DNA of 64,000 bases, taken from positions 124,001-188,000 of the forward strand of contig QPGO01000082.1 of NCBI GenBank assembly GCA_008632985.1, given 5' to 3'. A program made the translations under genes and the position numbers. Each line of letters starts with the position of its first letter. Positions within the stretch are counted from its first letter, which is position 1. The notes below the pieces were generated by a model that made no database searches, was not told the origin of the DNA, and saw only the letters and a list, made by a program, of their open reading frames with translations. Shown here in pieces: positions 6,362 to 54,615 of this stretch. Origin of the DNA: Psammoneis japonica. Its lineage: Eukaryota.

Positions 6362-6675
6362 GGTGGTTTGGTTGCTCGTGTATGTCGTGTTGTTTTTGGT
6401 TGCGTTGCGCTGTTTGGATGGCACAAACAATCCCGCCGACGGGCTACGTACAGACAGCCACAATTTACGGAGCGTCCGTTCGTCGTACGTTGGAAAAACC
6501 TGCTCCGACCTCCGACCGAAGCGACGAAGCCCGAAGCAAGAAGCAACACCATGAGAGCACAGAAATTCCCTTCCGTTCTCGGTAGGCTCTTTAAATCTGT
6601 ACTTAGTTTAAAAAGTACAAGAGTGAGCAAATTGGCAATTGGCTTGGCCTTATGTAGGTACGGTATGAAAACAAG

Positions 6676-19900: not shown

Positions 19901-19909
19901 AGCAAAAAT

Positions 19910-29614: not shown

Positions 29615-30399
29615 AGTGTTTTGCGAGCTGTACTGTAGATAAACACTCCTCACGTGGACAGAACATTTTCATTCCGGTGTTACCCTGCTTTTCCTATTAC
29701 GGTAGTCTATGGTAACTACTCGACTGCCGGCAGTACCTGCCCTAAAAACTCTAATATCAGTTCTAAACTTTAGCTAAACTGCTCGCTTGGAAGTTTCTGT
29801 CCATGAGAAAGTATTGCGAGCGCGAACGTCTTAAAACTAGATCTCCTACTAAAAGTTATCCATCTCTCTCAAAGTCGTTGGGGCTCTTCCTCCACACTAG
29901 CTATGTGGAAAGGGGCTTGTAGAAATTACAACTATCTCTCCAGAGATACGTCACTCTACAATCTAGAGCTAGAGAGAAGAGAGCTACGCTACCCCTGTGT
30001 CTATGACGCTTGCGATACCTCTTGCACATACGACGCTATTACTCTCTAGCTACAGTAGCTAGCTGCTACTCTATCTAGCTACTAGCTAGTAGAGGGCCAG
30101 CAGTAGAGGGCCTGCATGTCGGCAGACCTTGGAAGCAGCGATGATTCGTTCATCGCATCATCGATCAGAACACGAAAATAGGAAGAAGAGGGGGGAGGGG
30201 GGCGAAGTGACCTCGTTGCTGCTGCAACAACGAAACAACAAAGTGGGGAAGAAGAGAGGCGAAGAATGCTGCAAGGGAAGAAGTGAGTCCAAGATGCGAT
30301 GCGATGCGTTGCTGCTTTTTTCATGGCGTTGCACAGAGGAGGACACCATCACAGCCCATCGCTCATTAAAAGATGCAAAGGTTGATTTTATTTGGGCAG

Positions 30400-32350
30400 C
30401 ATTGCCAGCCATTTCCCATTTTCCATTTCTGTTCTGTGTGGGTTGTCTGCTGTCAGCACCAGATTGGAGTCAGTCAAACATGGATTTTTTCTGCTGCCAC
30501 ACTTGTTGCACATCCATCGGTCAAAAGATCTTGTGTGTGGAGGATGCTGCGGTTGTGCCGGTGCATGCCTTCCTTGATGACTCAAGTTCCTCCCTCAAAT
30601 GTTCAAGTTGCTTCAGGCAAAATGAAAAGTGTTGCTCTCCATTGTCTTGCACTGGCTCTGTGACATTCTCATGCACAGGGTGCTGAGCTCCGGTTTTTCG
30701 TGCCAGCTTGTTGTGTGGCAGTCGAGGCGGCTGTGATTCAGAAAGGTGGGGATGCCCCAAAAGGTGTGCAGAATCTTGGCATGCTTGTCAGCCATGATGT
30801 CATCAATTTTGGAGATGCTCCTGCATTCCTGTGTTGTGCTCACAAGTTCTGGCAAGACAGAGAGCACATCAAAGAGGGTGCTTCTGGAACCGGCATCCCC
30901 AAAATGCTTTGGACAACATGGTGGAATTTTTCCAGCTTGACTCTGTGCCTGAAGCAGTGACATGCATGTTGAGCTTGCACTTTGACCATTTTAAAGGGTG
31001 CACAACACAGTGCAAGTCTTGATGTGCAAGTGGCTTTTCAAATCCATGATTTGACACTGTTGCATTTTCTGCTGGCTTGGTGTCTTTGGTGAAAAGTGGC
31101 TTGCCAGAGTCAAGTCACATTGTCTGCACCAGCTTCAGCCACTTCAGGAGATGCTGTTCACTTGTGGCAATTGAGCCATGCTTCCAGATTCTTGTTTCAA
31201 GTTTCTGGAGGGCAAGTCTGTCTTCAAATGCATGTTTTTTGCAGTTCTTCCATTTCTCACTGTTCTTGATGTCTTCAATTTCTTTGCTTGCATTTTTCTT
31301 CCCTCCGAGACATCCAAAAACAAGTGCATCAACAACAAGCAACTTGTCAGATTTGTCATTGTGTTGTGCACAATCTTTCAAATCACAGACTGTGTGACAA
31401 CAATCAACATGAGTGGCCCACAGTGTGTGAACAAGTTGGTTGGTCCAGTGCCAAAGGCCAAGCCAAAACAAACAACATCCTGACCAAAAATTTGCACCCA
31501 GAATTCTTCTTTGTTTGGCCAGGTGTCCAAACAGAGAACACAAAGCTTCACATTTGAATGTTGAGCAAATTGATCCATGGAACAGGCACAATCTTCTGTT
31601 TCAAGCATTGGTGCAACTGCCACCACTCCAATCTCCCCAATCTCCACTGCCACAGTGAACAATCCCTTGCCACCACCTGTTTCTCTGCACTTTTTGAGTT
31701 GATCAAAAGTGTGGTCTGATGCAAAACTTGAACCAACCAACTGAATTTCTCTTGTGTGCTGCATGTCATCACTGATGCCAGTCTTGGCAAGATCTGACCA
31801 CTCATGTGTGGCATTGCACACAGGTCTTGTGTTTTGTCCTGTTGGTCCATGTCAATTCTTTCAGTCCCCTCACATGCTGACAATGGAGTTGTTCAGTTCC
31901 CCCACCAGCATTGATCAACTGCAAAAAATGCCACTCTTCTCTTTCAAGAAAATTGCGTCCTTGTTGTGAATGCAAGAAGGCAGATGTGTCATCACTCTTT
32001 CTGTGCTTCTGCATGGAGTGGTCAATGTGTCATTGGCATGATTGCCTCTGCACAGGCAACAACATGCATTGCATTTGCAGTGCACAGACATTTCCCAATC
32101 AGCAGCACTGCTTGCATCAAAGATTGAAGTTGGCAAACATTCCCTCTTGGTGTTGAGCTGTTGATGGATCATCTTGCCATCTGCACACCCACCAATCATC
32201 AACACATGTCAAGCAGGTGCCAAGGCCATTCAATCACCATCAGAGGATGTGAATGACCACTTCTTCAATCTTGGCATGCGCACATGTCATCAGGAGCATC
32301 CCTCAGCATGGCAAATGAAGTGGTGCCAGAAGGAAAGTTCTTCTTTTGCC
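30400..32350 (-). mobile_element. Decayed DDE transposase relic (MULE-related/DUF6729-like)
   Basis: SDHTFDQLKK...LFTVAVEIGEIG...VLCLDTWPNKEEFW (31378-31821) resembles the DHTF...GEI...YxD(T) core; broken frames. Confidence 0.5.
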
Positions 32351-33389
32351 ATTTGAGTTTCTTGGCATTCACCTCTCCTGGCATCATCTCGATTTGAGTT
32401 GGCATGAAACCAAGATGGACACAAGCCCAGAAGACACAAAATCAACAAAGCCCAAACAGGTGTGGGACAAGGAGCCTTCTTTTTTTTCACATTTCAGTTC
32501 ATTTCCAAATCTCTCTCTCTCTCTCTCTCTCAAGCACCAGTGAAGAAAAAATGTCTTCTTCTTTGATGTGAGAGCACTGATGGCAACAGCAGCAGCAGTG
32601 ATCATGTTCAATGCGATGGTGGTGCTGATGGCAGCAGCAGTGGTGGCATTTGAAAAGATGGTTGTTGTGGATGGCTTGCCATTTTTTTGAAGCCCTGGTG
32701 TGTGTGTGGAACAGGTCCTCCATGCCTTTCTCAGTTGTGCAAGCCACTGACCACCCTGTGTTTTTTTTTGTGTTGTTTCTTGCATTGCTTGTGACAAAGC
32801 AGTGGACAGCCATGTTTCACTCAGTGCTCATGTTCTTTCCACAATGCATGGATTTTGGGCAGCTTGGATCATGGTCCTTCTTGCAGGTGGGTCCTTGTTT
32901 GCACATCTTGCACTCAACAACCTTTTTTGGAGTGATGTGGCTGTTTGGAAGAGCAAGGATTTGCAACTCTGCCACTGCGGCTGGCGACATTGTCAACCGA
33001 GGCACATTTTTTTTGACAACTTGGCAATTCTAGAAAAAAGCTTGCCAAGTTGCTGCTTTTTTTGTGGCTGGCTTTTGAGCCCAAGACTGAGTGCTCATGG
33101 CATTGGGAAGCTTGGGGGGACAATGCTTTTCCATTTTGCTGCAATTCATTGTCTCAGAACTGTCTTGTGTGGGTTGGTGCTGATGATGAATGAGATGAAA
33201 AAAGACCACCAGAGGAGTTTGAATGTTTTGTGTGTGGTGTCTTTGTCCAAGCACCACCACTCAAATTGTTGCAGCCCATCTGTCTGAGATGGATCAACCA
33301 AGGTGGCTGTGGCTGTTCAAGGTTGTCCTTGCCTTGGTCTTTGTCCTGCTCAACCAAGAACTCTGCCAATGCCTCTCTGCTCATTCCAA

Positions 33390-35390
33390 GTCAGCCACTT
33401 CATCCCATCTCAATGACACACATGCTTTCCTCCCTCACTCAGTCATCCCCTGGCTCCTTCAATGCATCTTGTCCTCCTTGGGGCACCCTGGTCTAAAGCC
33501 AAAATGCTTGCAACTAAATCTGGCTCCTTTCCTGCCCTCTCCCAGCAAGATGCTTCCACCCTTGCCCATGCCTTCTCTTTTGTCAATCCATCCAATGACC
33601 TCTGCCCACATCCCCTGAAATCACCACTGGAGTTTGCTTCTTGGGCCAGCCTGTTGGCTCTCCTAAATGTGCCTCTGACTTTTTTGCATCTGAAGCTAAT
33701 GATTTTGCCCAAGCCCTCCTTTGCCTCACCACCTGAAAGTGCACTTTTCTGCAAATGTGCCATCCCCTCCAACACTCACTCCCTTGTCTCTGATGTCTGG
33801 TGCAACTTCCAATCCTTTGATGACTCTGACCTCTTCCATTGGGCCTCTCCTTTCATCAATGCCATTGTTGGCCATTCCCTCTGATTTCTCTGCTGCCTTG
33901 CTGCCTCCCCTTTGGCCCTTCCAATGACAGCCCAACCAGTTGCCTCTTTTCCTGCTGCCTTCAGTGGAGTTGGCCATTGTGATGTGTGTCTGCCTCAGCC
34001 ACCCCATCTTTTTTTGTCTCTCTTGCCTGTTCCCGCCATTTTGCCAGACATGGTCTTTCTCCTTGACTGGTGACCAGTGCTTCAAACTCCTGTCCAGCTG
34101 GTCTTCTGCCCTCTTCTCCTGGTCCAACTCTTGCTCTTCCCTTTGCCTTTAGAAGCCCTTCCATTGCCTTGCTCCAACCCTCTTCCAACTTGACTCCACT
34201 GATTGTTCTGTGCTCCCTTTTTCAGCTCATGACCACAACCTCAGTTCATGACTGCAACCTCCAAGGCCTGCCCCAACAAGCTCATCTTCTTCATCATCAG
34301 CACAACACAACCTTGCCCCTTCTTTTGAACCACCCTGATCTTCAGCTGGCTCTTCCTTCTGTGCTTTCTCCCCTGTCCAGCCTTTGCCTTCACTTTCTCT
34401 CCCACATCCACCCAAGCAACTGCCTTTCTTCCACCCAACTGGCTCTTCTTCTCCTCCTCCTCCTCCTCAAGCTCCAACTCTCAGTCATCCCCTCTGACCA
34501 ACAGAACCTCTCCCTTGCCCATGTGGCAACACTCACCCTGATCCCTGTGGTGACCACATGCTTTTTCTTGTCCCAAGTCAAAAATTAGAGCCCCCTTTGT
34601 CAAACCATGTGCATTGCACCATTTTTGCCATGCTCAAGACACTTGGCCCTCTTTCTGGCTCATGCTGCACCCCCGTCAACAAGTTCACCTTGAACCCACT
34701 GCACTCCTTCCTGATTGTCACTGATGTTGGTGATCAACTTGCTCCTGGTTCTGCACCTCCCAATTTGCCTTCCACCTGTCAACACATTGCACTGTCAATG
34801 CCACAATTCTGCATGATCCTCCCTGTTCTGCACCTGGTTTACCTGCCCCTCCCAACCAACTTGTCAAGGCTTGCCTCAGGAACACTCAAGATGAGCTCCT
34901 TGGACGTTGCTCCTCATCTTCTGCTGGCTCTTCCATCATCTCTTCTGTCAACCAGTCTGGCCTTTTCCTTCTGCTTTTTGCCCTTGACCACCTTGGTCAC
35001 ATTGGCCACCACTTTCACACCTTCCTCTGTGGTTCCTCTCAGCGCACTTCCTCTTCTGTCCCACCTCCTTGATTTGTCAAACTCTGATCCTTCCTTCTCT
35101 GCCTGCCAACTCTCCCTTCTTCTCCATTCAACCTTCTCTCCCACAGCCAATGTTGCCTGGCAGCACCTCTCTCTGGACCATTTTAACTCTTCTCATCATG
35201 CATCAACCCCTCAACCCAGGACTGCCTGGCTCCTGGCCTTGCTCTCTCCAATCACCTTGCCACTTTTCAATCCTTCGTGGCTTGCCCCCCCCCCNNNNNN
35301 CCACCACCACCAAAAGCTTCTGCTCCTCCATCTGTCTGCACATCCAAACCCCCTTGCTTTTCCGCCTCCCATCCTCTCTCCACCATGCAC
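33390..35390 (+). mobile_element. 5'-truncated decayed non-LTR retrotransposon with RLE endonuclease (CRE-like), copy 1
   Basis: SHLNDTHAFLPHSVIPWLL (eroded YxDD region); CPCGN..DPCGDH...LSNHVH zinc knuckle; homologous to 36480-39230 in inverted orientation. Confidence 0.65.
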
Positions 35391-35399
35391 CATGTGCCA

Positions 35400-36430
35400 C
35401 ACTGTGTTCTGTGGCTGCCAACAAAGAGAAATGTGGGCCAAACCTGTCAAGATTTTTTGGTGTCCAAGACCACTGTGGGTTGGCTGCTGCAATCAACTGA
35501 GCATCTCTGCAACCCAACACAACAGTTGGAGTTAATTTTTCCCATGCTTGTTCTGTCATGAAAGCAGAAGGAGTCATGATGAATGTGAAGCCTTTTGCAG
35601 CACCCCACTTTCTAAGACATGCATCAGTGCACCAGGCATGCCTCCTCTCTCTGGCAAGAAGAGAAAAACAGTGGGGCCTTGTTGGTGTCCAGCGGCAGAT
35701 CCCGCATGATGCACCAACATCAACACACAAGAGTCACGCAACATTTTCTCATGCTTTTTTTGCCAACAGATCCAATGACACAGATGCTTTCATCTGACAC
35801 AATGCAGCAAAATTCTTTGCCCACCTGAATGAAATGTTGAGTGACCTTTCCAAAAAGCTTGCCAACCAACCTGCAGCAACCAATGTTCCTGCTCCTGAGA
35901 AAGTTTAAAGCACTCTCAACCTCCACAAACAAGTGACACTGACCAGCTGCAGCAACTGCAGTTCATTTGGTTGTTGTCGCTTGAGCCTTTTGTTCTTTCT
36001 TCTTGATGGTTTCTGCATGACTTGGTTGCACCAGCATCCTTTGGAAGTGGTCAGTTGCACTCTTGTGGCTTTTTACACCCAAGCAGACTTGCTCAACAAG
36101 ATCAATGCATTCAGTTTTTGAAAGTCACAATTGGCTCTGTCAAGCTTGACAATTGATTGTGCAATTGCCTCTTGGGATGCTGCACCAATGAGCTGCTTTC
36201 TTCTAATGCTGTTTCCAATCTGACTTCATTTCAAAGGGTTGTCAATGACACATTTTCTGAAGGCATTGATTGGCACTCCAACAACACTGGCAAACACTTC
36301 TTTGTTGAACAAGCTTCTCCATTGCTGTCACAATGCCAGCCCTTCTTGCCAAGCCATTTGTTCACTGCATCCATCATGATTGACAGATGAGGCTCCTTGG
36401 ACCAATTTGTCCTTTGTTTCTTTGCCACAA
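35400..36430 (-). mobile_element. Decayed pogo/DDE_1-type transposase fragment
   Basis: GAAKGFTFIMTPSAFMTEQAWEKLTP...ANPQW...LDRFGPH resembles the DDE_1 sxWMT...LxxDgfxxH region. Confidence 0.55.
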
Positions 36431-36479
36431 TGGACCCAATGGTCAAGGCAGTGTGGAGGAAGGACTGGGGTTTTGCTGG

Positions 36480-39230
36480 AGTTTGGACATGTGTTCAGAG
36501 GCAAGGTTTGAGAGGTCAATTCCAAGGTTTGGGCCAAGGGGTTGAGCAGCCCAGGCTTGTGGGGCAGCTGAGTGATGCAAAGGTCCAAAGCGGTGGGGGA
36601 CAGTTGTTTCATCCAGGCTGCATTGGCTTTGGTAAGGAGATTTGTGGGTGAGAGAGCAGAGAGGTTTGGTGGGCAGCAAAAGAGGAGAAAGAGTTGGAGA
36701 GGTTAGAGAGGCTGGTCCAGGGTGATTTTTGGGGAGATGGGTGGTGCAGAGGAGTGGGAAGAGGTGTGGGATTCTCTAAAGAAGAAGGTGTGGAAGTGGC
36801 ATCTGATGCCACCAACAAGATGGTTGATGGTGAAAGGAAGGAGGAAGAGGCCCACTGAGTTGATGGTGGAAATGATGACTGAGCCGCTGATGGAGGAGGT
36901 GTTGCATCCTGGGAGCTTGTCCCAAGTGCTGCTGAGTTGAGCCTTGGAAACAAGGTTGTCAAGGGCAGGCAAACCAGGTGCAGGGGCTGGGAGGAGCCAG
37001 AGGTGCAGTGACATCAATGGCCAGGAACAAGAGATGGGTGGAGGGAGCATCAGGAGGGGTCGTGGAGCCAGAAATGAGTTGCACACCTGCATCAGCTGGT
37101 TGTTTAAGAAGACTCTAGGAACAGGCCTGCAGGTTTAAGTGGACATCTTGTTGGGAGCAACAGAGGCCTGCAAGGGGTCCAAGAGTGTCAATGGTTGTGC
37201 AGATGGCATCATGAATGTGGTTGGACAGCAGAGTTTTGTGGTTTTGGTGCAAGTGAAGGTGTGATTGCCACAAAGGCTGGGGGTGTTGGAGCTGTGTGGG
37301 GGCATGCAGCATGGCAGAGGTCAGGAGGAATGGCAGGAGCAGTTTTTTGTTGAAGTGGGGTGGTGAGTTGGGAGGAAGAAAGGGGCAGTTTGTTGGTGAA
37401 ACGTGGGACAAAGAGTGGAGGCACAAGCTTGCAAGAGGGGAAAAGAGGGATGGCAGGACTTGATTGTGGTCACGGTGAGCAAAGAGGTGGGGCAAGGTGT
37501 TGTGTTTGTTGTGACAAAGGCAGGCACATTGGGTGAGGCCTTGGAGGGTGTGATCAGCAACACCAGAGGGGAGGCTTTTGCATGTTGAAGAGTTGAGCTA
37601 AAAAAGGGTGTGGGGTGCAAGGTGGCAGAACATGGTGTGGAGTGGCAGGGTGGATCTTGAGTTGGGGAACAGGAGGCCAAAGGGGTGGAGCAGGCGGATG
37701 GGAGGGGGGGTGGCAATGGCCAGCAAAAAGCACACCATGTTTGGCCAGTTGCGGGGATCCAGCAAGAGAAATCAAGAACAGGGATGGGATGGAGGTGGCA
37801 GAGATGTTGCAACAGCCACCACCACCCAGGGAGGCTGGGAGACAAGCAACAAATTGAGCAGTGACTGGGAGTGGAAGGGGTGCAGCAGTGAGGTGAGAAA
37901 GGAAGCAGGGAAAGTGGCCGACAATGGTGTTGGTGAATGGTGAGACCCAAGGGAAGAGGTTGGGCATCTGGCTGAGTGACAAAAAATTGCAGCAGACATC
38001 CACAAAGAGAAGGTGGAGGCAGGATGCATGAGATGGAGCATCAATGGAAAACTGTGCTTTGAGCTTGCTTGTCAGCAAGTTGGGTTTGCAGATGCCAAAG
38101 GTTTTCAGCAAAGTCTTTGGGTTTGGCAGAGAGGAGCTGGGGGGCAAATTTGGAAGATCCGATTGGTTGGCCAAGAAAGCCTGCAGTGATTTTAGGCTGG
38201 GTGGATGGGTCATTGGTGGGGTTGAGAAAGGTGAGGGCATTGGCCAAGAAAGCGTTGTCATCAGGGAAGAGGTTGAGCAAGGAGCTGGTGATTGAGGCGA
38301 GAATCTTGGTTTTGGATTGGCTGAGAATGATTCCGCAGGGTGAGCCCAAGATGGACAGTTGGGTGAGAAACCAAGGGATGGCAGAGCAAGGCAGGAAGAT
38401 GTGGGCATTGTTGAGACAAGATTGGGGGCTGCAGATTTGGATCAGGAGGTGGTCAGAGCTGCAGCAGTTCTTGATCAAGAGGGATGAAGACCTGGGACAA
38501 GATGAGTTTCTTGGTTGTGGTGGTCACGGCCAGAAGATGTTGAGTTGTTGGTGCACATGGTCAAAGAAGGGAGGAGGGGGCAGTGTTGAGGTCAGGAGGA
38601 GAGCATGTCACAACAAACATCATGGGAGGCTTTGCTGAATTGGCTGGTGTGAGGTCCAGGAGGGCCGTTTCCTCAGTGGGAGGCGCATTGCTTGGGGGAC
38701 AGGTGTGACGTTTGATGTCAACACAGACAGTGTGGACAAGGAAGTCCATGCCACCATGGGTGCTGATGCCAGGTTGGCCAGAGTGGAGCAGATTGGCAGC
38801 AAAGGAGGAGGCAAAAAGGCGGGTGATGAGGGCACCCTGTGACGCAGCAAAGGAATTTGCCAACACCTGCAGAGCGGAGCTTGGGCAGGTTGGACGAGTC
38901 TTTGTGAAGGGTGACAAAGCAGCTGGCAGCAAGATGTGGTTAGATGGATGGTGGGAGGGTGGCTGGAGGAGAGGATGAGGTTGAGGAGGCACTTGAAAAG
39001 GAGGAGGCGGGGCTTGGACATTGCGACAGGTGGTGCAGAACATCGGCAAACCACTGAGGATTTGAGCAGGTTGGCAGAATTGGCAAAAGGGCCAGTGGCA
39101 GCACCAGGTCGACATTTGGAGAGGGCCTTTTTGAGGTCTTCGAGGGTGAGTTGAATTGGGGCGGGAAACGGCGGTGGGTGCTGGGTGTTGTGGGTGATGG
39201 GAGCGAGGCTGGAGCGACGGCAAAATTTTT
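36480..39230 (-). mobile_element. Decayed non-LTR retrotransposon with RT and RLE endonuclease (CRE-like), copy 2
   Basis: SGQPGISTHGGMDFLVH; SCLNNAHIFLP...LGSPCGIILSQSKTKIL (eroded SYLDD); LSNHIHDAI; QPADAG...LAIDVT (RLE PD...D motif). Confidence 0.7.
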
Positions 39231-39251
39231 TCTCGCGTCGAAAAAGGGCGG

Positions 39252-39701
39252 GTGCAATGTGCAGCCACCAGTGAGAGTCAATGCATCACGGCGACGTGTT
39301 GCAGCCTTTAAATGTCACAAAGGGCGTGACAAAAACAACCTTTTGTCTGCATGCACACTGCACTGTGAATTCACAGCGGAGTGGTTCATCGCAACCATTG
39401 GGCAGGAGGCCAGGGGTTCGAAACCCTGAGTGGGAGTTGTCTGCAGCAACGTTGATCACTGTCGAACGCGTCGAAACTCTGTGCAGTTCTGCACGTTCCT
39501 TCGTGCGCACCCACACTGTTCTGCCAAAACCGTGCAGTGTCAGTGCACGTTGGCAAAGAGCCGCATGGACGCGTGACACATGGGGAGGAGTGCAATGTGC
39601 AGCTGCTGGTGAGAGTTGATGTGTCACGGCGACGTGTTGCAGCCTTTAAATGTCACAAAGGGCGCGACAAAAACAACCTTTTGTCTGCATGCACACTGCA
39701 C
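39252..39701. repeat. 112-bp direct repeat pair (39252-39363 and 39590-39701)
   Basis: gtgcaatgtgcagc...cacggcgacgtgttgcagcctttaaatgtcacaaaggg...cacactgcac twice. Confidence 0.9.
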
Positions 39702-39850
39702 GGGAAAATTGAACTTGAAGTTTACAATGTCAGGTCTGTGTTTCTCAGTTCTGAATTCTCCCGTTCCACAATGCAATTCTTGACTCCTGCTTTAACGTTT
39801 GCTTCTAATCCAAGCTTTGCACTTTGCACACCCGAAACACATTCGAACCA

Positions 39851-40625
39851 TGATGAAAGACGAAGCCGAAGATGGATCACTGCGCACAGTGGAGCAGCTG
39901 CAGGAACCTTTGCTGGTTGTGCAGCCAAAACCTCCAGAAGAGGAACTCTGTCAGCGTCGCGCTTCAACTGGAGATCCAAGTTATGTCGAACCTCTTGACA
40001 TTGCAGAACAGGAGCAGGAAGAGAGGAATGGATTGGAGATCCAGAAGTGACGCATGGATCCTGGAAAGATGGCTTGTTTGATTGCTTCAAGTTTGGTCCG
40101 TGCCATCCTTCTCTTTGGAACGCGTGTTGCTGCCCTCAGATCCTCATGGCTCAGGTGTTGACACGTCTGAAAAGGAATTGGCTTGGCGATTCTGCTCCAG
40201 AAGACGAGTGGAGGGCCACGTTTCGGAGAATCTTGACCATGGTGATTTGCCATTGGGTCTTGAGTGTGTTTTTGTTGCCATCGGGTCCGGATGTGGTTGT
40301 CGACAAAGAAGGCAATGTCACAACCATTCCCGTGGAAACTCCAACCTGGCAGCAAGTGCTTTGCAACATTCTGGTGTTCGCCTTTGGATTGTGCACTTTG
40401 ATTGTGTTGATGAAGACCTGTCGAGCTGTGGGGGAATGGCATGAGATCCCTCAGACAAAATGCTGGGGCTTTGAGGACATCTGTTGTGCTTTTTGGTGCG
40501 GGTGCTGTGCTGTTTCCCAGCTTGCTCGTCAGACCGCAAACTGTCAGGATCGGAGGGCGGTTTGCTGTTCTGACTCAGGCCTGCCTGCCACTGCTCCCGT
40601 CTTTGAAGTTTGGAGTGTTTTGTGA
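39851..40625 (+). pseudogene. Hypermutated, chimeric PLAC8-family pseudogene (duplicate of 29034-29614 plus 3' flank)
   Basis: Colinear with the intact copy at offset +10999; all Tyr>Cys/His; stop TAA>TGG; unrelated 5' part is out of frame. Confidence 0.92.
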
Positions 40626-41790
40626 GCTGCATTGCAGACAAACACTCCTGGCATGGACAGCACAATGTCATTCTGGTGTTGCCATGCTTTTCCCATTGCG
40701 GCAGTCCATGGCAACTGCTCGAGCAAGTGATGCCAATCATCCTCCTCGTCCAGGGTGGACTCAACATGTCAGCTGCCGGCAGTGTTCTGAAATCAATGCT
40801 TGCCACCTGCACCAAAAGCTCTGCCATTGGTTCTGCTCTTTAGCCAAACTGATTGCTGGGAAGTGCCTGTCCATGAGAAAGCATTGCGAGCGCAAACGTC
40901 GTAAACTGGATCTCCCACTACAAACCAGCCATCTCTCTCAAAGTCATTGGGGCTCTTCCTCCACACTGGCTGTGTGGAAGGGGACTTGTGGAAATTGCAA
41001 CTGCTGCATCTCTCCAGAGATGCATCACTCTACAATCTAGAGCCAGAGAGAAGAGAGCCAATCTGTGTGCCCCTGTCTGTCACGCTTGCGATGCCTTTTG
41101 CACAGAAGACGCTGCCAGCACTGTGACACCGGTGTGAACAGCCAATCGTGTGGTGGCTTGTGGCTTGCAGTGTGGTCTGATGTGCGAGTTGCAAGTGGTG
41201 TCAAGGAGTTCACATGCAATGTCACCTCTCTGCTCTCTCTCCAGTGGAGCAGAGAGCAGAGCTGGCTCTCTAGAGAGAGGGCCCTCTCTACTCTAGAGCT
41301 CTAGCTGCCAGCCAGAGTGTGTGTTGTGCACTGTGCACCGGTGGAGAGTGGTGACGAGTTGCGACGTGTTGGTCATTCGGTCAGCGAGCAGACCTTGGTA
41401 GCATCGATTGATCGATCGATCACTTGGACCAACTTTTTTCGATTGATTGGTCAGGGGGACCGCCGACCTGTTTTTTCCGCGTTTGTCCTAAAATGACACC
41501 GGCTGTCCAGCAGTTCCTCCCAGCCAGATAGAAGAAGAAGAGAAAAGGAAAAGGAAGGAAAAAATGAACATTGATGGAGGTTTGAAAGGGTGCGCTGCAG
41601 CACCGCAGTGCGCACAGCAGTGAAGACGGACAGACAGGTGCAGACGCGCCACGTCCTGATGCGTTGGGCACGTGGAATTTGGTGCGAAGTGTCACACGTT
41701 TACGTGCGCAGAAGGATGTGGATCGCCAACGGCTGGAACAAAGCAGCACACCACACAGCAGTCAGTGCAGCTCTGTCATCACGGCGCTAG

Positions 41791-42607
41791 AATGGCGGAG
41801 GACAACATCGTTGCGTCTGGCAAAGCAGAGGATGCAGCAGCTCCGGAAGTCATGGCAGAACTCACGGGCGCCGAAGGCGCGGCGGCAGCTGCCATGACTG
41901 CACTTGGCGCCGAGGGAAGTGCCGAGGGTGTGTCCGTTGAGTCCGAATGCACAAGGATGTCGGAGAAGCCGGCGCAGTCCCAAACTGAAAAGAGGGAGAA
42001 AGCCGTGCCGCCGGAGCCAACCTTTCAAATTTGTGGTTGGAATGAAGCACAGCAGCTGGGTTGCACCGCCAAGCAGCTCCTCAAGGCCGGTTGCAAGATC
42101 GAGTTGGTGGGTGATCAGGCCACCTTTGTGAAACCGGAGGTCCTGCCTTTTTGCAGCAGCAAAAGCGAGGAGGCAGCCAAGCCCGCGGCCAAAGCGGTCG
42201 CGAAAGCAACGGCGGAAGAGGAAGAAGAAGGAAAGCAATTTCCGGACCCCAACGAGCCGTCATTCGACTTGTGGGACTGGGTGTTGCGGCACGAAAAATC
42301 CGATAATTTCCAGGAGTCCATGTGCCTGATGAAGGATGTGCCGAATGATCCCGACCTCTGGTTCCCCGCGCTGGGAGAACTGGGGTGCATCAGGAGCGAC
42401 CCTGAAGCCGTCGCGAATGCTCACGGTGAACACTGCAAGTGGGTGTGGAGGTGCCGCACAGAAGTCGGCGAGAGGGGCATCCCAGACTCGACACCGAAGA
42501 GCAACAAAGTGTTCAAGACCGCCGTCGAGGCTTTCGAAGCGGGGTGGTCACTCGCACTGGTCCACCTCGTGAAGAGAGTAAGTGCAGAAGTGTGCACATT
42601 TGGATGA
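41791..42607 (+). pseudogene. Eroded ORF of unknown function (possibly an upstream exon of the SET gene; GTAAGT donor-like site at 42578)
   Basis: Coding-like Ala/Glu-rich ORF starting MAEDNIVASG; no Tyr. Confidence 0.5.
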
Positions 42608-42664
42608 GGTGCCGTGTCACTTCAACCTGTGTTGTTTTGCCTCGAAAAGTCCGTTCACTCCGCA

Positions 42665-43252
42665 GGCCCCAAGGAGGTGGAGGTGGGCGAGCTACGCGCA
42701 TCGCAACAGAGGGGCGCAGGCATTGGTTTTTTTGCTTTGCGCCAGTTCCAGAAAGGCAGCACAGTTGGAATCTACGTGGGCCCCAGGGTGCCCGGTGCGA
42801 CGAGGAGCTGCTCGTGGTACGACCACGACAGCAAGTTTGGAGAAGACCACAGCATGTGCCACTCCACCATCCGTGACAGCGAGGGCCACTGCGTCACAGT
42901 GGAGCCAAAACCGCTTGATTTTAGCGGTCCAGGGAACAAGAATTCCCATCCACTCTACCTCGGAATGCACTGCGTGAACGATGCCACCGAGTCGTTCAAG
43001 GACAAGAAGAAGATCAAGGCAAGCCAACACGCGGACAACAACTGCGAGTTCTACAATGACGGGTGCTTGGCAGTCACGAAGCGAATCATGCCCGGGGAGG
43101 AATTTCTCTCCAGATGCAACTTGGACGAATCGGAGAAGAAGAAGAAGAAGAGGAAGGCGACGTCGGGTGCCATGAATCGGAAGAAGAAATCGCGTCTACT
43201 CCCCAAGTCGGGGGGGAGAAGCTCCACGTCTGGCAAAACGTTTGCCGTGTAG
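42665..43252 (+). pseudogene. SET-domain lysine methyltransferase-like
   Basis: GAGIGFFALRQFQKGSTVGIYVG; LGMHCVNDA (RFINH-equivalent); VTKRIMPGEEFLSRCN (GEEL..Y motif, Tyr position is TGC at 43115-43117). Confidence 0.8.
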
Positions 43253-43474
43253 TGTGCTCTGTAAATTAGCAGCACAGTGTGTTGGTGTTTTTCAGCGAAA
43301 CTGTGGCATCAGTTGGAAAGGCGTAGCCCCAGTTGTGGTTCGAAAAATGGGAACGAGGAAGAACAGAAAGTCGGTAAATTTGCGCAAATCTGGCAAATCA
43401 GCAGGTGCCTGCACAGTCGCCTGAGTACAGAAAGTCAGCAAATTTACGCAAATTTAGCAAGTTATTTTGTGCTG

Positions 43475-44944
43475 TCACAGTCGCCTGAGAATGGTCTCTT
43501 CCTCTAGAGAAAGGGGGATTGAATTGTTGTTCTTGCCCACTGCAGCACTCTTCAGGTGGAGAGACACGCAGAAGAACTTGTCGTTTGAGTTTGTCCTGCT
43601 GGAGATGCAGTGGCACTTGGTGGGGTTAAAAATGATGACAACACCAAGCCGGAGTGCAACGGAGATGCCTTCGGCAGGGAAGCAGAAGTGCGCCACAATC
43701 CCATCATTCATGGTGTGGCTGCCGGACGGAGGGACTCCCACCACGGTGACTGCTGACAGGAAGAAGTCCTGGTCCCGATGGGCATTGAGGAAGACATTGC
43801 GCCCAGCCGCCAGAGAGGAGAAAATGCCATCTGACCGTGCCAGGGATTTCCAGTTGTGAAACTTTTTGACACGAGCGACACCCTCAAGGATGGCACAGTC
43901 CACGTGCTCATTGACAAGGTGCTCCATGCGTGAAAGAAGTCTGGTGAGGTGGTGAGTGTGTTGGTCGGCTGTGCCAGGCTGCTTGCAAGAAATTCGAGTG
44001 TCTCTCGTGGCAGCCAGGCCAATCGTGGAATGCTTGCTCCTGTCCGTCTCCATGAAGGTAATGCGTTGTTTGCCATGCACGGTGGACTGGGCGGTGCAGC
44101 ATTCTAGTGCTTCGAGCGCTCGGCACTGAGCAACTAGTTCTGCTGGGTTGGGGGAGCTGAACACCACAGCAGAACGCGGCAGCAGGGTGCAGGTGTTGTC
44201 GCAGCGGCAACCGTCCAAGCCAAAGAAAGGCTTCAGATCGAGCACAGGGTCACAGACGACCAGAGGAGCCAATTCAGCAAAGTCAATGTCAGCAAGACAA
44301 GGTGGTGCAGGCTGAGTGTAGTCGCCGTTGTAAACTGGAGTGCGGTTGGCTACGCAGTGCATGGAGAGACTCTTAGTGACGCACGGTGCGAGTGGAACGA
44401 GGCGAGCAATCTTGGATGTTTTCCCACTGGCGCGGCTGCGGATTCGCCTGCGGCTGCGGTGGGCCTTGCGAAGTGGCGGTTGAGCCCTCAACACGTTCTC
44501 GCATGTCCTGGTGCGCATTGACGATGCGGTGTTCGCAGAGAACGTGTGTGCGAACTTGCTGGCAAATGTTCCGCTGCTTGACACTGTCACTGTCGTCTCA
44601 ACAGTGCCCAAAGCAGAACTCTGTCGACAGGGACCGGCGGACTCCAGGGGAGTGGGGTCAAAACCCAATCGAGAGATGTGTCTGCTTTCCGTTGCCTCAA
44701 GAGCACCCAAAGCAAAACTCTGTTGACAGGGACCGGCGGACTCCAGGGGAGTGGGGTCGAAACCTAATCGCAAGAAGCATTTGCTTGTTGTCGGGCTGCG
44801 AGCTGCACGTCCCAAACCCCCACACTGTCGAGACCGGCTGTAACTCGATCGCGACAAGTGCTTGTCGTTGGCAGGACGACGCAGCGAGGCACGAGGTAGT
44901 TGCGACATGGTGTGTCTCAATTTGAAATGTGTTTCAAAATGCAA
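43475..44944 (-). pseudogene. 2OG-Fe(II) dioxygenase, TET/JBP-like (core ~43475-44300)
   Basis: FLNAHRDQDF (HxD); FCFPAEGISVALRLGVVIIFNPTKCHCISSR (distal His); CVSLHLK terminal strand. Confidence 0.6.
44598..44770. repeat. Two-copy repeat, 99-bp period (in-frame RLGFDPTPLESAGPC)
   Basis: cccaaagca.aactctgt.gacagggaccggcggactccaggggagtggggtc at 44607 and 44706. Confidence 0.9.
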
Positions 44945-45289
44945 TGACGGAAGTGTTGTCGCGTTGTTTTTGTCTCCGCGGAGGGAGGATCATCCCACGG
45001 CAATCTCAGTGCGAGTTCTCGCGTAGAAGTGCGTCACGTGCCGTGCCAGCTCGTGCATTTGAATTGCACGGACACACAAGTGCGGCAACGATGAGAAGCA
45101 GGCCGAGATTCAAAACAAATTTTATCGCCCAAAGGCGTCTCATTGTTTCAACGCGTCTGCACATCTGTCCAAAATGACTTTGTACGTTGCTCCATGCGCA
45201 GGTAGAGGCAGCACGCCGCGTTTGAAAATTTCGCACGCACAGAGGGCGCGACGGTAATTTTACGCATTCTGCGCACGTCACAGTTTGGT

Positions 45290-46225
45290 TTGGAAATGCG
45301 ATGTCTGGTCGAACCCGCTGCAAGCAAGGTTGATGTTGCCACAAGGTTGGATGCGATGAACCATCATTGCAGAAGTGTTGGGGAGTTTTGTCTTCAAACG
45401 GCTCCGGACTCCGCGTTCCAGAGCAGGCGTGTCTCCGGAGACGGAAGCGGATCTTCGCACGGCGGCGAAGTTGGCTTCGCTTTGAGCAGCGAAGTGTTTT
45501 TGAACGAACGCCTTCTTGGCGTGAATCACACCTGCGATGCATCTGTCGACATGGGCGGGGGAGTTGCCGGACCCAGCATCGGGCTCAAGTTACTTCGTCG
45601 CCGTTGCACCGTGGTGAGCATCGAGGCCGACCACGATCATCACCAAGAGGCTGTGCGTTGGGCTCATCGTGCTGGCCTTCGCTCGAACGGCGGGTTGGAG
45701 TTGATCAACAAGTCATTCTTGGACAAGAGGCTGGCTCCTTTGTGGAAAAAGAAAGGACTCAAGGTGTTCTTCAACAACTGCAACTCCCGCATGGTCGACG
45801 ACAAGAACACACAGCAGAAGGCAGAGGCGATGCTTTCGAAGTTGTGTCGTGCTGGGACCGTGGTGGTGGCGCTAGATCCGCTGTTCGCGTCGCACGCGGC
45901 AGAGTGGATGTGCGAGTCCTTCACGGCGGATTGCCATGATGGCGACTTTTTGTGGCACAGCGGAGACGTGAAACATCTCGTCTTCCACAAGTGCACCAAG
46001 AAAGAGGAGACTTCTCAGTCAACCAGCCAGCACATGCGACGTCCCACTCCGACACACTTGGAACGGAAGCATTTGCCCGTCGCGAAACAGCCAATTTTGC
46101 TTAAGAACTCAACTGAACTGTTTTTTTACCATCACTGTGCTAGACGTCACACGCTAGTTGCTCCACTCAATTCGCCATTGCTTCGCGGTAATGACAAGTT
46201 GTCGTCGGAGATGGTGCACACTTGA
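45290..46225 (+). pseudogene. Class I SAM-dependent methyltransferase, DOT1-like
   Basis: SHGGE, DMGGGVAG, VSIE, KSFL, VFFNNC and AGTVVVALDPLF appear in the same order as DOT1 YGE/DLGSGVG/GVE/GDFL/FVNNF/GxRIVSxxPF. Confidence 0.6.
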
Positions 46226-46312
46226 AGAGACAGAGGAAAGCTGAGTTGTAATCGACACTTGGTTTGCCAAACATTTACAAATTTACACTGCACCGGCAAA
46301 AAAAAAAACAAC

Positions 46313-47050
46313 TCAGTCTTCATCGCTGTCCTGAAGCACCAAGTCGTCATCGACGTTCAGGTCAACTTCGCAGTTGAGCTCGACATCATTGTCGGCCTCT
46401 TCTCCAGCTTCTTCTGCCGGAGCTCCAATGAGACGACAGAGTTCCACAGGCAACGACCCCTCGTAGAAGTGGCTGTGAAGCAAGTTCTTGTTTTGGGCAC
46501 ACCAACCGATGTGAAACTGACCACCTTCCTTCTGAAGCTCGGCAAGCGCCACCTCGTTGCCAATCACTTCGGACCAAACAGCATCCTTCATCCAGAAGAA
46601 GTCGTCTTCAACGAAGACCTCGGTGTTGTTCTCAGGGTCATCGTTGAGCTGCTTCGCAATGCACTTCCCGAGGCCGCGCACTTTGGCATCGGTTGGGACT
46701 TCTTCGAGGAAGATGAAGAAGAGACGCACGGCGCAGTTCTTGGTGTTCGTCTGCAACTCGCCTTCGTGAACCCACCTGCCAGCGCAAGGGTGGAATCTGA
46801 CTTGAACCGCCCACGGAGTCCTGCTGCGAAGGTTGTCAAACAGAACCTTCTCCGACCAAACATTGGCCAAAAGGGGATTCTTGGCTTGGAGACAAAAAAC
46901 GACGCCTTTCTTGCGGCCGACAGTGACGGTGGCGCAGCGCAGGAGGGCGTCCTTGTCGGAATGGCTGCCATCGTCAGAACCGGCGGATTTGGAAAGCTTG
47001 AACCCATGCTTGGCAAGGCAGTCTTCCGGTTTAAGGTCGTCGTCGGTCAA
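46313..47050 (-). pseudogene. Eroded ORF of unknown function (cargo); 5' part probably continues to ~47300 in another frame
   Basis: 245-aa coding-like ORF with acidic tail; nearly Tyr-free. Confidence 0.55.
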
Positions 47051-47729
47051 GCCGTTGGTCTTGCGGGCGGACTTAGTTTCTTCAACAGAGCATCAGAAAA
47101 CTTCGTCTTTGCCTTCTTCTGTTTGGTTTTGGCGACTTTGGCTTTCGCAGCCCGGGGAGGTCGTTGTGTTTCTTTTGCATGCCATCGAATCAGTCGGAGA
47201 GAAATTGTGGGAACAAAAAGTGCGATCGTTCAGAAGTGCCAAGAAAGACCCAGCAGAGCTGCGTGCATCATGCCAAGGAGAACTGGCAACATCAGCAACT
47301 AGATCCAAACACGTCGAACTGCAACAAGGTGACCTTCCAGGTGTCAGCACTTGCAAGTGGTGCATGGATTCAATTTGAACAAAACAGACACAAGGATCGG
47401 AGCACGCAAAGTCGCACCAAGTTTGCTGAAAATGCGTAAAATCACGTGCAATTCCGTCCGTGCTTCATGTGTGTTTCAGCCGTTGCTGCCGCGCGGCCAT
47501 CGCGCACGAAATCTAGTCGCCAAACGGTCGACGCCATCGCTGTCACTGCTGTGCCGGTGGTTGGCTAAGGTGGGCCCATCACCCATTTGGATGATTCGCG
47601 CGCACTTTGGAAACACGAATGACGTCAATCGCACTGTCATTGCCACATGACTGACTCAACTGCCCCGCCACTCGTTAAAGCGTGATTCTGCGGAATTTGC
47701 GTGAAGCTGCGCCCACCACCAAGATTGCC

Positions 47730-47831
47730 GAAACAACTTGAACAAGATCCGAATCTTGCCCCATGGAATGTTCAGAGCAGATGGTCGAAACAACTTGAAC
47801 AAGATCCAAATCTCATCCCATGGGATGTTCA
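47730..47831. repeat. Two-copy repeat, 57-bp period
   Basis: gaaacaacttgaacaagatcc.aatct...cccatgg.atgttca twice. Confidence 0.85.
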
Positions 47832-47984
47832 ACGTCGACGAAACTAAGTGGGACATCGCACGTCTGGTGCAAAGAAGGATGTGGGAGGAACGCACACGTC
47901 ACTCTTCCGTCGAGGTGAAAGAGGCACACTTTCGTCTCACTTTTTTGTGACAGAACCTTTGCGCAAAGGGAAACGAAAAGCATC

Positions 47985-48680
47985 CAACTGCGGTGATTGG
48001 GCCACACCAATCGCAGTTCTCAGTTCTCACAGTGACCTGGTGACGCAGGTTGTGAGATGACGCACAAGCTCAGCTGCGGTGACTGGACGACACCAGTCGC
48101 AGCTCTCACAGAGACCTGATCGCACAGGTTGTGAGAACACGACACAATGCTGCGGTGATCGGACAGCACCAATGCAGTTCGTCAAGCAACTACTCACTTG
48201 GCTGTGGTGACTGGACGACACCAGTTGCAGCTCTCACAGCGACCTGATTGCACAGGTTGTGAGCAAACAACACAGTGCTGCACCTCGTAACGCAGGTTGT
48301 GAGATGATGCACAAGCTCAGCTGCGGTGACTGGACGACACCAGTCGCAGTTCTCACAGAGACCTGATCGCACAGGTTGTGAGAACACGACACAACGCTGC
48401 GGTGATCGGGTGGCACCGACGCAGTTCGTCAAGCAACCAACCAACTCGGCTGCGGTGACTGGACAGCACCAGTCGCAGCACTCACAGCGACCTGATTGCA
48501 CAGGTTGTGAGAAGACGACACAGCGCTGCGGTGAACGGACAGCACCGACGCGGTTCGTTGATCAACTGGACAGAACCACTGCGGTGACTGGACGACACCA
48601 GTCGCAGTGCCACAGGTGGTGAGAAAACACACATCGCTGTGGTGATTGGATGGCACCGATCGCAGCTTCACGGTGATCGC
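47985..48680. repeat. Complex minisatellite of alternating hairpin units upstream of Rep-helicase
   Basis: Units ctgcggtgactggacgacaccagtcgcag and ctcacagagacctgatcgcacaggttgtgag; higher-order period ~247 bp. Confidence 0.9.
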
Positions 48681-48752
48681 ACTGAAAAAACAACTGTTTT
48701 TGCTGAGCAACTTCTTGAAATTTGTTGAGTTGAAGCATCAGCTTAAATTAAA

Positions 48753-51700
48753 ATGGACGAGGCCAACTCCCGTGTTTGTGGTGCAATCAACAGAAAGTTT
48801 GAGATGCTTTGTCTGCATGGAGACGGAGAATTTAGACCACACGTGTGTCCAGTCTGTGATGTTCTGCTGAAACCTAGAGAAGTTTGCCACTTGCCGCTCG
48901 AAACATTGGAATCAGCAAGAAACTTGCTCACCCCTTCAGACTGGAACAGCGCATCTGATCGTCTCAAGTCCTGCTGCGCTGTGGAGCATGAAGATGCTGA
49001 TTGGATCAAAGACCTGCTGCTTTCTCCCCAGCCCAATGCGCAGTGCAGGAAGACAGACGACACGTCGACGGATTCACTTGCTGCAGCGAATGCCGAAGAA
49101 GCCTGGGAAGAGCCGTTGCGCCAATGTGCGCGACAGCGAACAACTGCTGTTTCGGTGCCCCGCCGCACGAACTGTTGTCTCTGACCGAAGTAGAACCAGC
49201 AATGCTCACACCAGTGAAAACACACGGGTGCTGCTTCAGTCACCTGGCGGCAAACAGAAGAAGCTTCAGGGAAGTCTGACGTGCTACAAAGTCAAGATGC
49301 AAAGCATCGCAAGAACTGTTGTGCACTTCGACGTGCTGAATTTACATCAGAATGTGATCACACTGATGACTGGAAAGATGACTCCGGAGCGAAGACAACT
49401 TGTGCGTTCAAAGAACAGAATTAGGACGCACTGCATGCTGAGGGCAATGGAATGGCTGTTGCACCACAACCAAGAGTGGGTGCACCAACAGACAAATCTA
49501 GACGAAGTTGGGCGTAATCTGCGGAATCCCGCACTTGTCGACAGCACCAGCAAAGAAGAAGGAGAAAATGCGAACATTGAGACCTCAGAGTCATTTCATG
49601 TTTACTTTCCTGATGGAACCATGTCTCCTGCGACCGGTGGTCAGTGCAACCTGGACTGCTTCAAAGATCTTGTGCACGAAGCTGCTGCCAATGGATTTGA
49701 TTTGGAGGTGCAAGCACAGTTGTCCAAAGAATCTGCGAGTGATTTCAAAGGCAACAACTTCATTGACGCATGTCTGCTGCAGTTTCCTTTTGGCAGAGGA
49801 GGAATCAATGAGACGAGAATGAAGAAAGACGGAAGTCTTGCAGATGGCACCAACCTTGCACACTGTGCCGACCACTTGGCACGGATTTCCCAGCCTCACT
49901 TCCATGAGCAGCTCTTTGTGTTAATGTGCTGCAACTTGACAATGAAGCAAAGGATGCTGCAGAGCGCAGGGTGGAAAGTCAGGGACAAGAATCAGGCTGC
50001 ACAGTTTGCAAACGAACTGACAGTGGATGATGTGGATGGAGCTGTTTGTGATCGCAACTTGGGCGAGAGAAGAGATTGTGGACTTGGGCACCACTTTTTG
50101 CACGCACTCGACATTGTGTCTGCGTCTCTGCCACACAGTGACAAAGCAGCAAAGAAAATGAGGAGAAACGCCGAAACCCACCAGCATCATTTTGGTCAGG
50201 GTGGCATTTTCTTAACCGTCAGTCCGGACGATGCAAATTCGTTTCTTGTGCAACTGCACTCGGGTGTCATCCTGGACCCAAACGAAGACGTGACACAACT
50301 GACGGACGAAATTCTTGCTAGCAGGGCCAAGCAACGTAATGAACTGCGTCCAAAGTTTCCCGGTCTAACAGCCTTTGCATTCGAGTGCTTGTTTGACATT
50401 GCAATGGAAGAGGCAGTGGGTTGGGATCTGAGTGCCAACCAACCAAGAGAAAACTTTAACTTCTGCATTGGCAGGCCAGCCGCATTTTTAGCCGCAGTTG
50501 AGGAGCAGGGACGTCTGACAGCACACGGACACATGCAGATCTGGTTCGCATCGATCAACAATGCAAGAGAGAAACTGCATTCGCCAATGAGACAGATCCG
50601 ACGCGAAGGTGCTGAGCACCTTGCCAACATGGTTCAGAAGATCTGCAGCACGGAATTAATCTGCAGCGAGGACTTCAGCACTGGCGCGTTGCGCGAAGCA
50701 TTCGATCATGACTGCACAGTGCCAAAAATGCATCGCACCTCTCCAAAAGTGGCAGACGACCAACAGCTAAGAAACCTGAGGCACAAAGACGGCCAGCAGT
50801 CAAAGAACGGAATGTTTGCTCATTGTCATCACTGCACCAAGTGCTGGACAAACGTCGAGTTTGTAGAAAGCTTTTTGCAGTCACGACACCGTGCACCTGG
50901 CCTGACTCGCCATCCAGACAACCATGCAAAGCGACTAAAAGCAATGTGTGTGCAACACCAGCGAAGTGGTCCGCAAGGGACAACAGAGGCATGTGTGCCG
51001 GACGCAGCTCACAACCATCACATGCATGTTATGAAGTCGTGTTTTCCCAAATGCGTGGAGTTGCGTAAAATGCATAAAAAAACCCCACACGAGGAACTGG
51101 ACACGCAGTCAAGGAAAAGGAAACGAGAGGAGCTCAAACTGGGTGACTGCCATCACAGGCAACCAGCTGCTTCGTGTCCAAATAATTTGGCAAGGAACGC
51201 AGATGACACTCAGACAAAGTGGTTCAGCTGGGATGGAACTTTTGCGCATCGGCACGTGAAGGAAGTTGTTCCGAAGAGGAGAAAGTGTGATGCTTTTCAA
51301 AACGTGTCGTGCCCTGCAATGAGCAGATCAAAACTGACATGCAACACAAACATTGCTTTGTTGATGCCTGGACCGTCTGCTCAATGCATGATTGAGCACA
51401 TCCTAAAAGACACCCAGAAAGATGACACTGCATCGTACGATGAAGTGCTTCGAACTACAAACAGGACAGCGACGGAATTGCGGAAACACGCATCTGATGC
51501 ATCGGAAGCAATCAGATGTCTCACATGGGGTGCTCACTCGCACAACAAGACGAACATCATTGGACCACCACTTGCGTCTTACACAACAAGGAATGGAAGC
51601 CATTTCATCGAATCTCATTTGACCGCATGGTGCCCCTTGAAAGACATTGTCAGCACACTAGAAAGAGATGAAGTGTCTGCGACTGCAGCCCATTTTGGCG

Positions 51701-54480: not shown

Positions 54481-54615
54481 AATGAAATGTTTCGATTAGA
54501 TCAGCACATTGCGCAGAAATCCACACATGCGCCACACAACGTCGAATGGATTTTAACCAACAAACCAAGAAACGCGAACGCAGCCGTCACAGAAAACGTA
54601 GCAACAGAGAAAACA

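Follow-up and report, generated by a model that had tools for sequence, protein, structure and literature searches.

In Neurospora and other ascomycetes, repeat-induced point mutation (RIP), which depends on RID/DIM-2 and acts before meiosis, converts C:G to T:A pairs, mostly as CpA>TpA, creating TA dinucleotides and stop codons and raising AT content, and it mutates both partners of a duplication. The animal deaminases ADAR (A-to-I) and APOBEC (C-to-U) have RNA or single-stranded cDNA as their substrate, and the changes they cause cluster asymmetrically by strand, ADAR showing a preference for a 5' U. The closest described system is that of the chlorarachniophyte alga Bigelowiella natans (Mettrop et al., bioRxiv 10.64898/2026.01.13.699255), in whose mutation-accumulation lines de novo changes are almost only A>G/T>C, all at TpA, and confined to an integrated giant virus and virophage, the rest of the genome mutating normally; its authors propose an ADAT2-like adenine deaminase and find TA-depleted coding sequences enriched in reverse-transcriptase and DDE domains. 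Here we describe a locus of the diatom Psammoneis japonica, contained in 64,000 nucleotides of contig QPGO01000082.1 (assembly GCA_008632985.1, positions 124,001 to 188,000; this whole stretch is "the window", and all coordinates count from its first letter), in which an intact PLAC8 gene (copy A) is accompanied by a 5'-truncated duplicate (copy B) that has lost nearly all of its TA.

This locus extends to a new lineage a kind of regional hypermutation that was described only very recently, and with an intact gene and a dead copy of it both in the window, it yields a polarised, site-by-site spectrum of a process otherwise known from a single 2026 preprint on an unrelated alga. In both systems TpA becomes TpG or CpA (39 of the 42 TA lost here) in confined regions. 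The systems differ in host (here a diatom, i.e., a stramenopile), in extent (ratio of observed to expected TA, O/E, of 0.04-0.14, near saturation, vs. 0.45 in the B. natans viral region), in the CpG decay that runs alongside, the host-gene fragment that was reached and the tetranucleotide context effect that is seen here, and in the nature of the record, which is only a fossil one here and in real time in B. natans. The words 'diatom' and 'stramenopile' have no occurrence in the available text of the preprint (10.64898/2026.01.13.699255), and a full-text literature search for the process found no description of it in diatoms and only the B. natans preprint. One diatom paper (PMC4504042) was rejected as a precedent, as in its accessible text the match to 'TpA' is 'Tpase' and the single 'dinucleotide' passage deals with nucleosome positioning.

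The two copies consist of the following parts:

28979..29614, + strand: coding sequence (CDS) of PLAC8 copy A, 211 codons and a TAA stop (29612-29614)
~28718-28803 and ~28856-28948, + strand: two introns in the 5' untranslated region (UTR) of A, with GT..AG joints in a contig of run X2
29034..30037, + strand: duplicated part of A by self-BLAST and global alignment, comprising the CDS from codon 19 onwards with its stop, the 3' UTR and a further ~300 bp downstream of where the transcript contig stops
40033..41113, + strand: the whole of copy B, a 5'-truncated PLAC8 copy with ~1 kb aligned to A
40033..40722, + strand: block 1 of B, a PLAC8 fragment with 0 TA, aligned to 29034-29723
40723..40804, + strand: 82 bp found in B only, without TA, either inserted in B or deleted from A
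40805..41113, + strand: block 2 of B, homologue of the non-coding downstream flank of A (29735-30037)

Copy A matches Pfam PF04749 with 57.0 bits (E = 3.9e-15; gathering cut-off 34.4), and the named relatives of its protein are those of diatoms (Cyclophora, Grammatophora, Nitzschia, Mayamaea). Contigs were examined from public runs X1-X3, all of one sample, possibly the assembly's own source. A contig of X2, a run labelled only 'DNA?' that acts like RNA at this gene, spans 28519-29734, free of differences from the window and interrupted by two GT..AG joints; as it is spliced, A is transcribed, with the two 5'-UTR introns given above. No run listed for the stretch is labelled as RNA. Copy B still matches the same family (37.7 bits, E = 4.1e-9, same cut-off), in an open reading frame (ORF, 39999-40625) that reads through the former stop, the TAA of A being TGG in B. 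It begins at codon 19 of A, within exon 3, and has neither the promoter nor the first 18 codons of A; at the other end its homology runs to position 30037, whereas the transcript contig stops ~300 bp earlier, at 29734, so that B is a partial duplicate made at the DNA level and not a retrocopy. The segment that contains it (39675-41452) is bounded on both sides by high-copy repeats and is itself of ordinary read depth; no X2 contig was found on 39675-41075, which says nothing on the expression of B. An ATG-started frame just upstream of B (39851-40048) holds GGAGATCCAAG, a motif similar to that with which the A/B homology begins (GGAGATCCAGAAG); it might reflect microhomology where the duplication was joined, or be what is left of a chimeric 5' exon.

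A comparison of the two copies reveals a highly selective spectrum. Within block 1 (690 bases, gapless, 93% identity, 48 differences) all 22 TA of A are absent from B, 10 having become TG, 10 CA and 2 having been lost by transversion; 10 of the 33 CG of A are TG/CA in B, 16 differences fall at sites other than TA or CG, and no TA or CG is private to B. Dinucleotide totals shift from A to B from 22 to 0 for TA, from 73 to 92 for TG and from 34 to 48 for CA, which is not the creation of TA by CpA>TpA that characterises RIP. An initial annotation of the window, made from the sequence alone, had reported this pattern for the CDS part (12 of 12 TA gone, 10 of them by transition; 7 of 28 CG changed) and for the next 109 bp (10 of 10 TA gone), and all of these counts were reproduced; homology reaches further than its alignment, continuing in block 2 past the extra 82 bp of B. 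There (300 aligned columns, 81% identity), the 26 TA of A are represented by 11 TG, 8 CA, one GA, 4 TA that are kept and 2 sites in gaps, a fifth TA of B sitting in a gap column. Over both blocks, 42 of the 46 alignable TA of A are lost, 39 of them as TG (21) or CA (18), compared with 16 of 45 CG (14 of these changes being transitions) and 36 of 803 bases outside TA and CG; one CG and no TA is private to B. The other 14 dinucleotides show losses of 2-35%, the higher values being due to overlap with TA, and bases in TA changed far more often (42 of 97) than other A/T bases (23 of 417; Fisher p = 8e-19). TA was therefore lost about five times faster than CG in the same DNA (4 of 46 vs. 29 of 45 survive). 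Both strands were hit alike: TG and CA products are intermixed, and a search for strand-coordinated clusters among the 39 TA transitions found none (21 runs vs. 20.4 expected).

The polarity of these changes is evident from 13 aligned homologues. Five Tyr codons of A are altered in B; at the respective positions 8, 7, 13, 10 and 12 of the 13 homologues have Tyr, the residue that B carries in their place (Cys or His) occurs only once among them, and R148, R152 and T178 deviate in B alone. These diatom homologues, together with the Pfam-complete state of A, identify A as ancestral and B as derived at these sites. The direction proposed in the initial annotation, which took the Tyr codons and the stop of A for the original state and named an ancestral TG/CA state in an outgroup as the observation that would overturn it, is borne out: by the 13 homologues, it is A that has kept the ancestral state.

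The erosion of B is part of a regional pattern. In a 1-kb dinucleotide map of the window, three composition states can be told apart by TA and CG O/E, arranged as follows (values of the last domain calculated over 39000-55500, a length of 16.5 kb):

1-15 kb and 56-64 kb: normal DNA, TA O/E 0.60-0.64, CG O/E 0.93-1.01
15100..28000: domain void of TA and CG, TA O/E 0.05, CG O/E 0.08, holding a pair of direct repeats resembling long terminal repeats (LTRs)
28303..30104: TA-normal island of 1.8 kb around the intact PLAC8 gene, TA dense within and sparse outside
Flanks of A inside this 28.3-30.1 kb island: TA O/E 0.79-1.35, CG O/E 0.74-1.13
30400..39000: domain void of TA and CG between A and B, TA O/E 0.04, CG O/E 0.09
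39000..55560: TA-void, mostly CG-retaining domain with B, TA O/E 0.14, CG O/E 0.79

The domain around B has 134 TA vs. 933 expected, and TG and CA reach O/E values of 1.6-1.9 in the two fully void domains. As in B. natans, depletion is regionally confined (TA O/E 0.04-0.14 in the void domains vs. 0.60-0.64 in normal DNA), and the positions of TA in the window place the borders between void and non-void DNA to within a few hundred bases. The island of A, wedged between the two fully void domains, corresponds approximately to the transcription unit of A plus a few hundred bases. At three borders strips of 300-400 bp are CG-normal and already TA-void (15030-15400, 28007-28302 and 30105-30400), i.e., TA loss extends 300-400 bp past CG loss. 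Decay of methylated CpG resembles TA loss in its both-strand CG>TG/CA transitions at a palindromic step of silenced DNA only, and at this locus it is present in B, where 16 of 45 CG are lost, and saturated at 15-28 kb and 30-39 kb; it cannot, however, yield the loss of TA, which is the faster of the two and reaches beyond the CG-void borders. Both fully void domains contain runs of N, at 26430-26783 (354 bases) and 35295-35300 (6 bases).

Copy A escapes at sites where selection should be indifferent. Its non-coding flanks keep 92 TA, 42 on the 5' side (O/E 0.79) and 50 on the 3' side (O/E 1.35), at or above the level of normal DNA in the window, and of the 13 TA in its CDS all 8 that a synonymous transition could erase are still present. 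Since these neutral TA are intact, selection does not explain the asymmetry between the copies, and preservation of A by selection is ruled out as its cause. Of the two readings offered in the initial annotation, location or chromatin on the one hand and selection on the other, the latter thus falls, while the former is supported by the regional void state, with chromatin itself deduced from position; its observation that only one copy is affected holds at synonymous and non-coding sites, where TA of A is not eroded. The flanks of B that have no homology to A are as TA-void as B itself, the void state being common to the 16.5 kb around it.

How far homology guides the process can be judged from repeats placed differently with respect to the domain borders. 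Two pairs lie wholly inside void domains:

19918-20270 and 25384-25732: LTR-like direct repeats, 78% identity, 5.1 kb apart, within the 15.1-28 kb void domain
39208..39701: element of very high copy number that contains a tRNA T-arm-like motif; two direct repeats of 112 bp (39252-39363 and 39590-39701) flank it

The LTR-like pair, between whose members no Pfam domain is recognisable, has 16 discordant dinucleotides with CA in one copy and TG in the other, and 8 of the 9 mismatches of the 112-bp pair form four such CA/TG sites. Discordance of this kind is what would be expected of an ancestral palindromic step that was resolved on either strand after duplication; both members of these pairs have been mutated, independently. 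Of the A/B pair, only the member inside the domain has been mutated, which is not the RIP pattern. With both copies inside, both are hit, and with one inside and one outside, only the inner one; the process does not follow homology, as the initial annotation had proposed by contrast with RIP, and a homology trigger appears not to be at work across the domain border. The A/B pair settles here what compositional surveys cannot, namely that the process is not homology-guided.

The survivors also disclose a sequence context. Between 39 and 55.5 kb the remaining TA stand mostly in CTAA (26), CTAG (24), GTAA (31), TTAA (16) and CTAC (25), while ATAT (0), ATAC (0), ATAG (1) and GTAC (4), which make up 42% of TA in normal DNA, are nearly or completely gone; the four TA surviving in B are CTAA (2), CTAC and CTAG. 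Expressed for a single strand, A mutates more readily in TAT and TAC than in TAG and TAA. This preference for TA followed by a pyrimidine and the rate relative to CpG decay can serve as yardsticks for candidate enzymes, and together with the polarised spectrum and the inside/outside homology test they are what this locus adds to the known case. Because of the genetic code, the coding effect is missense only: TAA and TAG vanish, and no new stop arises except by TAA>TGA.

The largest example of this effect lies in the same domain as B:

48871..54480, + strand: ghost ORF of a Helitron RepHel protein, 1869 codons open, with Pfam Helitron_like_N and PIF1
41495..55534, + strand: 14.04-kb insertion with the RepHel ORF, between two T's, with loose ends at 41453 and 41494 in X1/X2 contigs

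The RepHel ORF has only 5 Tyr in 1869 codons (0.27%), vs. 2.5-5.0% in 65 of the 66 homologues tabulated (of 69 found); one homologue, P0105, is Tyr-poor as well, at 0.8%. In 22 columns Tyr is shared by at least 80% of 20 homologues; there the window ORF shows 1 Tyr, 10 Cys, 5 His, 3 Phe, 2 Ser and 1 Val; in the same comparison His and Trp columns are 100% kept and other residue classes 50-90%. Its YxxxY motif carries Y839C and Y843H, both positions being invariant Tyr in 20 of 20 homologues and the two catalytic tyrosines of the Rep domain; the element is dead despite its open frame. In other copies present in the reads, 41494 joins straight to sequence starting at 55535 (the repeat itself starting at 41453), which identifies 41495-55534 as the 14-kb insertion. 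Capture of B by the Helitron was considered and rejected, as B ends at ~41113, at least 340 bp to the left of the insertion. A joint from 39309 to 41453 in X1 has only 26 letters on its shorter side and was not used. In the 30 bases past the 41494/55535 junction, the X2 copy differs from the window at 4 positions, with A against G in the window, three of them in TpA.

We consider it likely that the state of B was produced by a regional hypermutation of TpA to TpG or CpA at the DNA level, with location or chromatin as its guide. The sequence of events would be that a 5'-truncated, DNA-level duplicate of A landed in a silenced, transposon-rich stretch, where a regional process turns TpA into TpG or CpA (A:T to G:C transitions at the palindromic TA), on either strand equally and in any DNA inside the domain, repeat or not. 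Near an expressed gene this process would come to a halt, at a distance of no more than a few hundred bases, which would explain the escape of A. As it would remove TAA and TAG and make no stops, dead genes would stay open as ghost ORFs. The domain of B does contain selfish DNA (the RepHel ORF and high-copy repeats), yet B itself is host-derived. For the chemistry, enzymatic deamination of adenine to inosine, read as G, is a tentative candidate, to which we give somewhat less than an even chance; alternatively, thymine might be modified so that it mispairs with G.

Among the explanations that need no location-guided mutator, a RIP-type trigger acting on the A/B duplication, with A cleaned afterwards by selection or repair, might appeal to the ~1 kb that the copies share at 81-93% identity, which should be enough for RIP in fungi, and to the repeat pairs of which both members are mutated. 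RIP is also similar in being a dinucleotide-specific transition storm against duplicated or mobile DNA that skews dinucleotide composition. However, TA is destroyed here, GC goes up, stop codons are removed and none created, i.e., the direction is opposite to that of RIP, and the partner outside the domain is untouched, with its flanking and synonymously erasable TA retained; moreover, the non-homologous flanks of B and the low-depth segment 39675-41452 are equally TA-void. We hold this explanation to be quite improbable. The process might instead involve no dedicated enzyme and be a by-product of the replication or repair of silenced DNA, such as error-prone patch synthesis with a TA bias or an unrepaired TpA photoproduct. 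That the effect follows domains and not sequence families, and that transitions dominate at CG too in the same DNA, would fit such an origin; its extreme specificity would not, as the WA motif of polymerase eta also comprises AA, of which only 10 of 61 are lost, many of these overlapping TA. The flanks of A are also spared although they are not transcribed, so that transcription-coupled repair alone cannot be what protects them, and the B. natans process is on in only some lines, which suggests regulation (10.64898/2026.01.13.699255). On balance, a by-product is unlikely.

Two further explanations concern the origin of the B sequence itself. If B had been made by ADAR-like A-to-I editing of RNA followed by reverse transcription and insertion, the A>G changes after T would recall the 5'-U preference of ADAR (a likeness discussed in 10.64898/2026.01.13.699255). 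Strand symmetry refutes this account, one strand showing 21 A>G and 18 T>C changes in mixed order, and so does the non-transcribed flank that B includes, its homology to A ending ~300 bp past the transcript contig; the 5' break of B within exon 3 and the presence of the signature in the surrounding unrelated DNA also contradict it, and we consider it to have virtually no chance of being correct. More generally, ADAR and APOBEC systems share with the present one the hypermutation of selfish elements by base deamination (if deamination is indeed the chemistry here), but the changes seen here are equal on both strands, do not form runs and lie in resident chromosomal DNA. An artefact, in which modified bases of silenced DNA were miscalled as TG/CA during sequencing or assembly, gains some appeal from the fact that CG and TA, both palindromic steps, are candidates for base modification and that the runs come from a single sample. 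It is very improbable, as contigs from public reads reproduce the B states and the void domains with few differences: X1 contigs span all 30 depth bins, covering the void domains in records of 2.8-2.9 kb with 1-7 differences, and a B-type X1 contig carries the B states at five A/B difference sites where X2 carries the A states. The same signature is also found in related Helitrons on unrelated metagenome contigs (5 of 80 loci with TA O/E of at most 0.23), and TA>TG/CA mutations are real in the mutation-accumulation data of another alga (10.64898/2026.01.13.699255).

The preferred explanation, a location-guided regional hypermutation, has to contend with several observations that weigh against it. 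As all runs come from one sample, the read check is not fully independent and excludes an assembly slip better than a systematic artefact of chemistry. Differences between the window and the runs, as a sign of ongoing mutation, are not clearly above random among those listed: 8 are of TA type and 8 of CG type among the 24 tabulated of 40 listed (11 in the high-copy stretch 39399-39554 and 5 of the B-type contig placed on A were left out, and 32 more differences lay beyond the list), and random transitions in TG/CA-rich DNA would give about one fifth of each type. None of the 73 ORFs of the two fully void domains matches a Pfam family at its curated cut-off. The Pfam search covered 83 ORFs, these 73 and 10 from 39-47 kb, and gave four weak matches (three below the curated cut-off, one with a weak E-value), none of them to a transposon family, so that the arguments for a transposon origin of the fully void domains are the LTR-like pair and the read depth. 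Chromatin as the guide is something that we infer from position, and B, being itself a second copy, might conceivably have been recognised at first by a homology trigger. Finally, the background divergence of A and B, with TA and CG sites excluded, is uneven, the CDS part differing at 9 of 501 bases and the non-coding DNA at 27 of 302 (p = 4e-6), i.e., five times less in the CDS, which suggests a phase of constraint or gene conversion in the history of B. A neutral B should have drifted in its CDS as in its flank; it would thus have been constrained, or homogenised with A, until shortly before its erasure, and in either case the erasure of TA appears to have been late and fast relative to the background clock.

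In its wider form, our proposal is that a DNA mutator specific for TpA and guided by chromatin is common to diatoms and chlorarachniophytes and acts on the palindromic TA step of double-stranded DNA (an adenine deaminase or a thymine modifier), an idea that we put forward as possible rather than probable. In such a 'position-effect mutagenesis', anything in a silenced domain, copies of host genes included, would lose TA faster than methylated CpG decays; Tyr codons and TAA/TAG stops would disappear, and the process would stop 200-400 bp short of an expressed gene. If true, this mutator would be a mirror image of RIP, with targeting by place and not by homology. A practical consequence concerns genome annotation: since TAA and TAG are removed and stops are not made, gene finders will call dead transposons and pseudogenes as genes, here the 1869-codon Helitron ORF that lacks its catalytic tyrosines and the read-through frame of B.

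The high-copy element at 39208-39701, near the edge of the domain of B, has an X1 word depth of ~79,000 vs. 55-65 nearby, and Rfam and ARAGORN gave no match anywhere in the window, this element included. Among the 80 metagenome loci that encode relatives of RepHel, the 5 with whole-locus TA O/E of at most 0.23 have TG and CA values of 1.4-1.9; related Helitrons on these contigs carry the same signature as the window, so that other genomes are probably subject to the process as well. TA-void, TG/CA-rich loci of related Helitrons were seen in several metagenomes (L022, L007, L035, L068, L063 and L033). One of them, L022, is TA-void over all of its 7.8 kb, with an open RepHel ORF of 1882 codons (2047-7692) that contains 0.11% Tyr, and L033 and L007 have sharp internal TA borders, that of L033 lying near base 3000.

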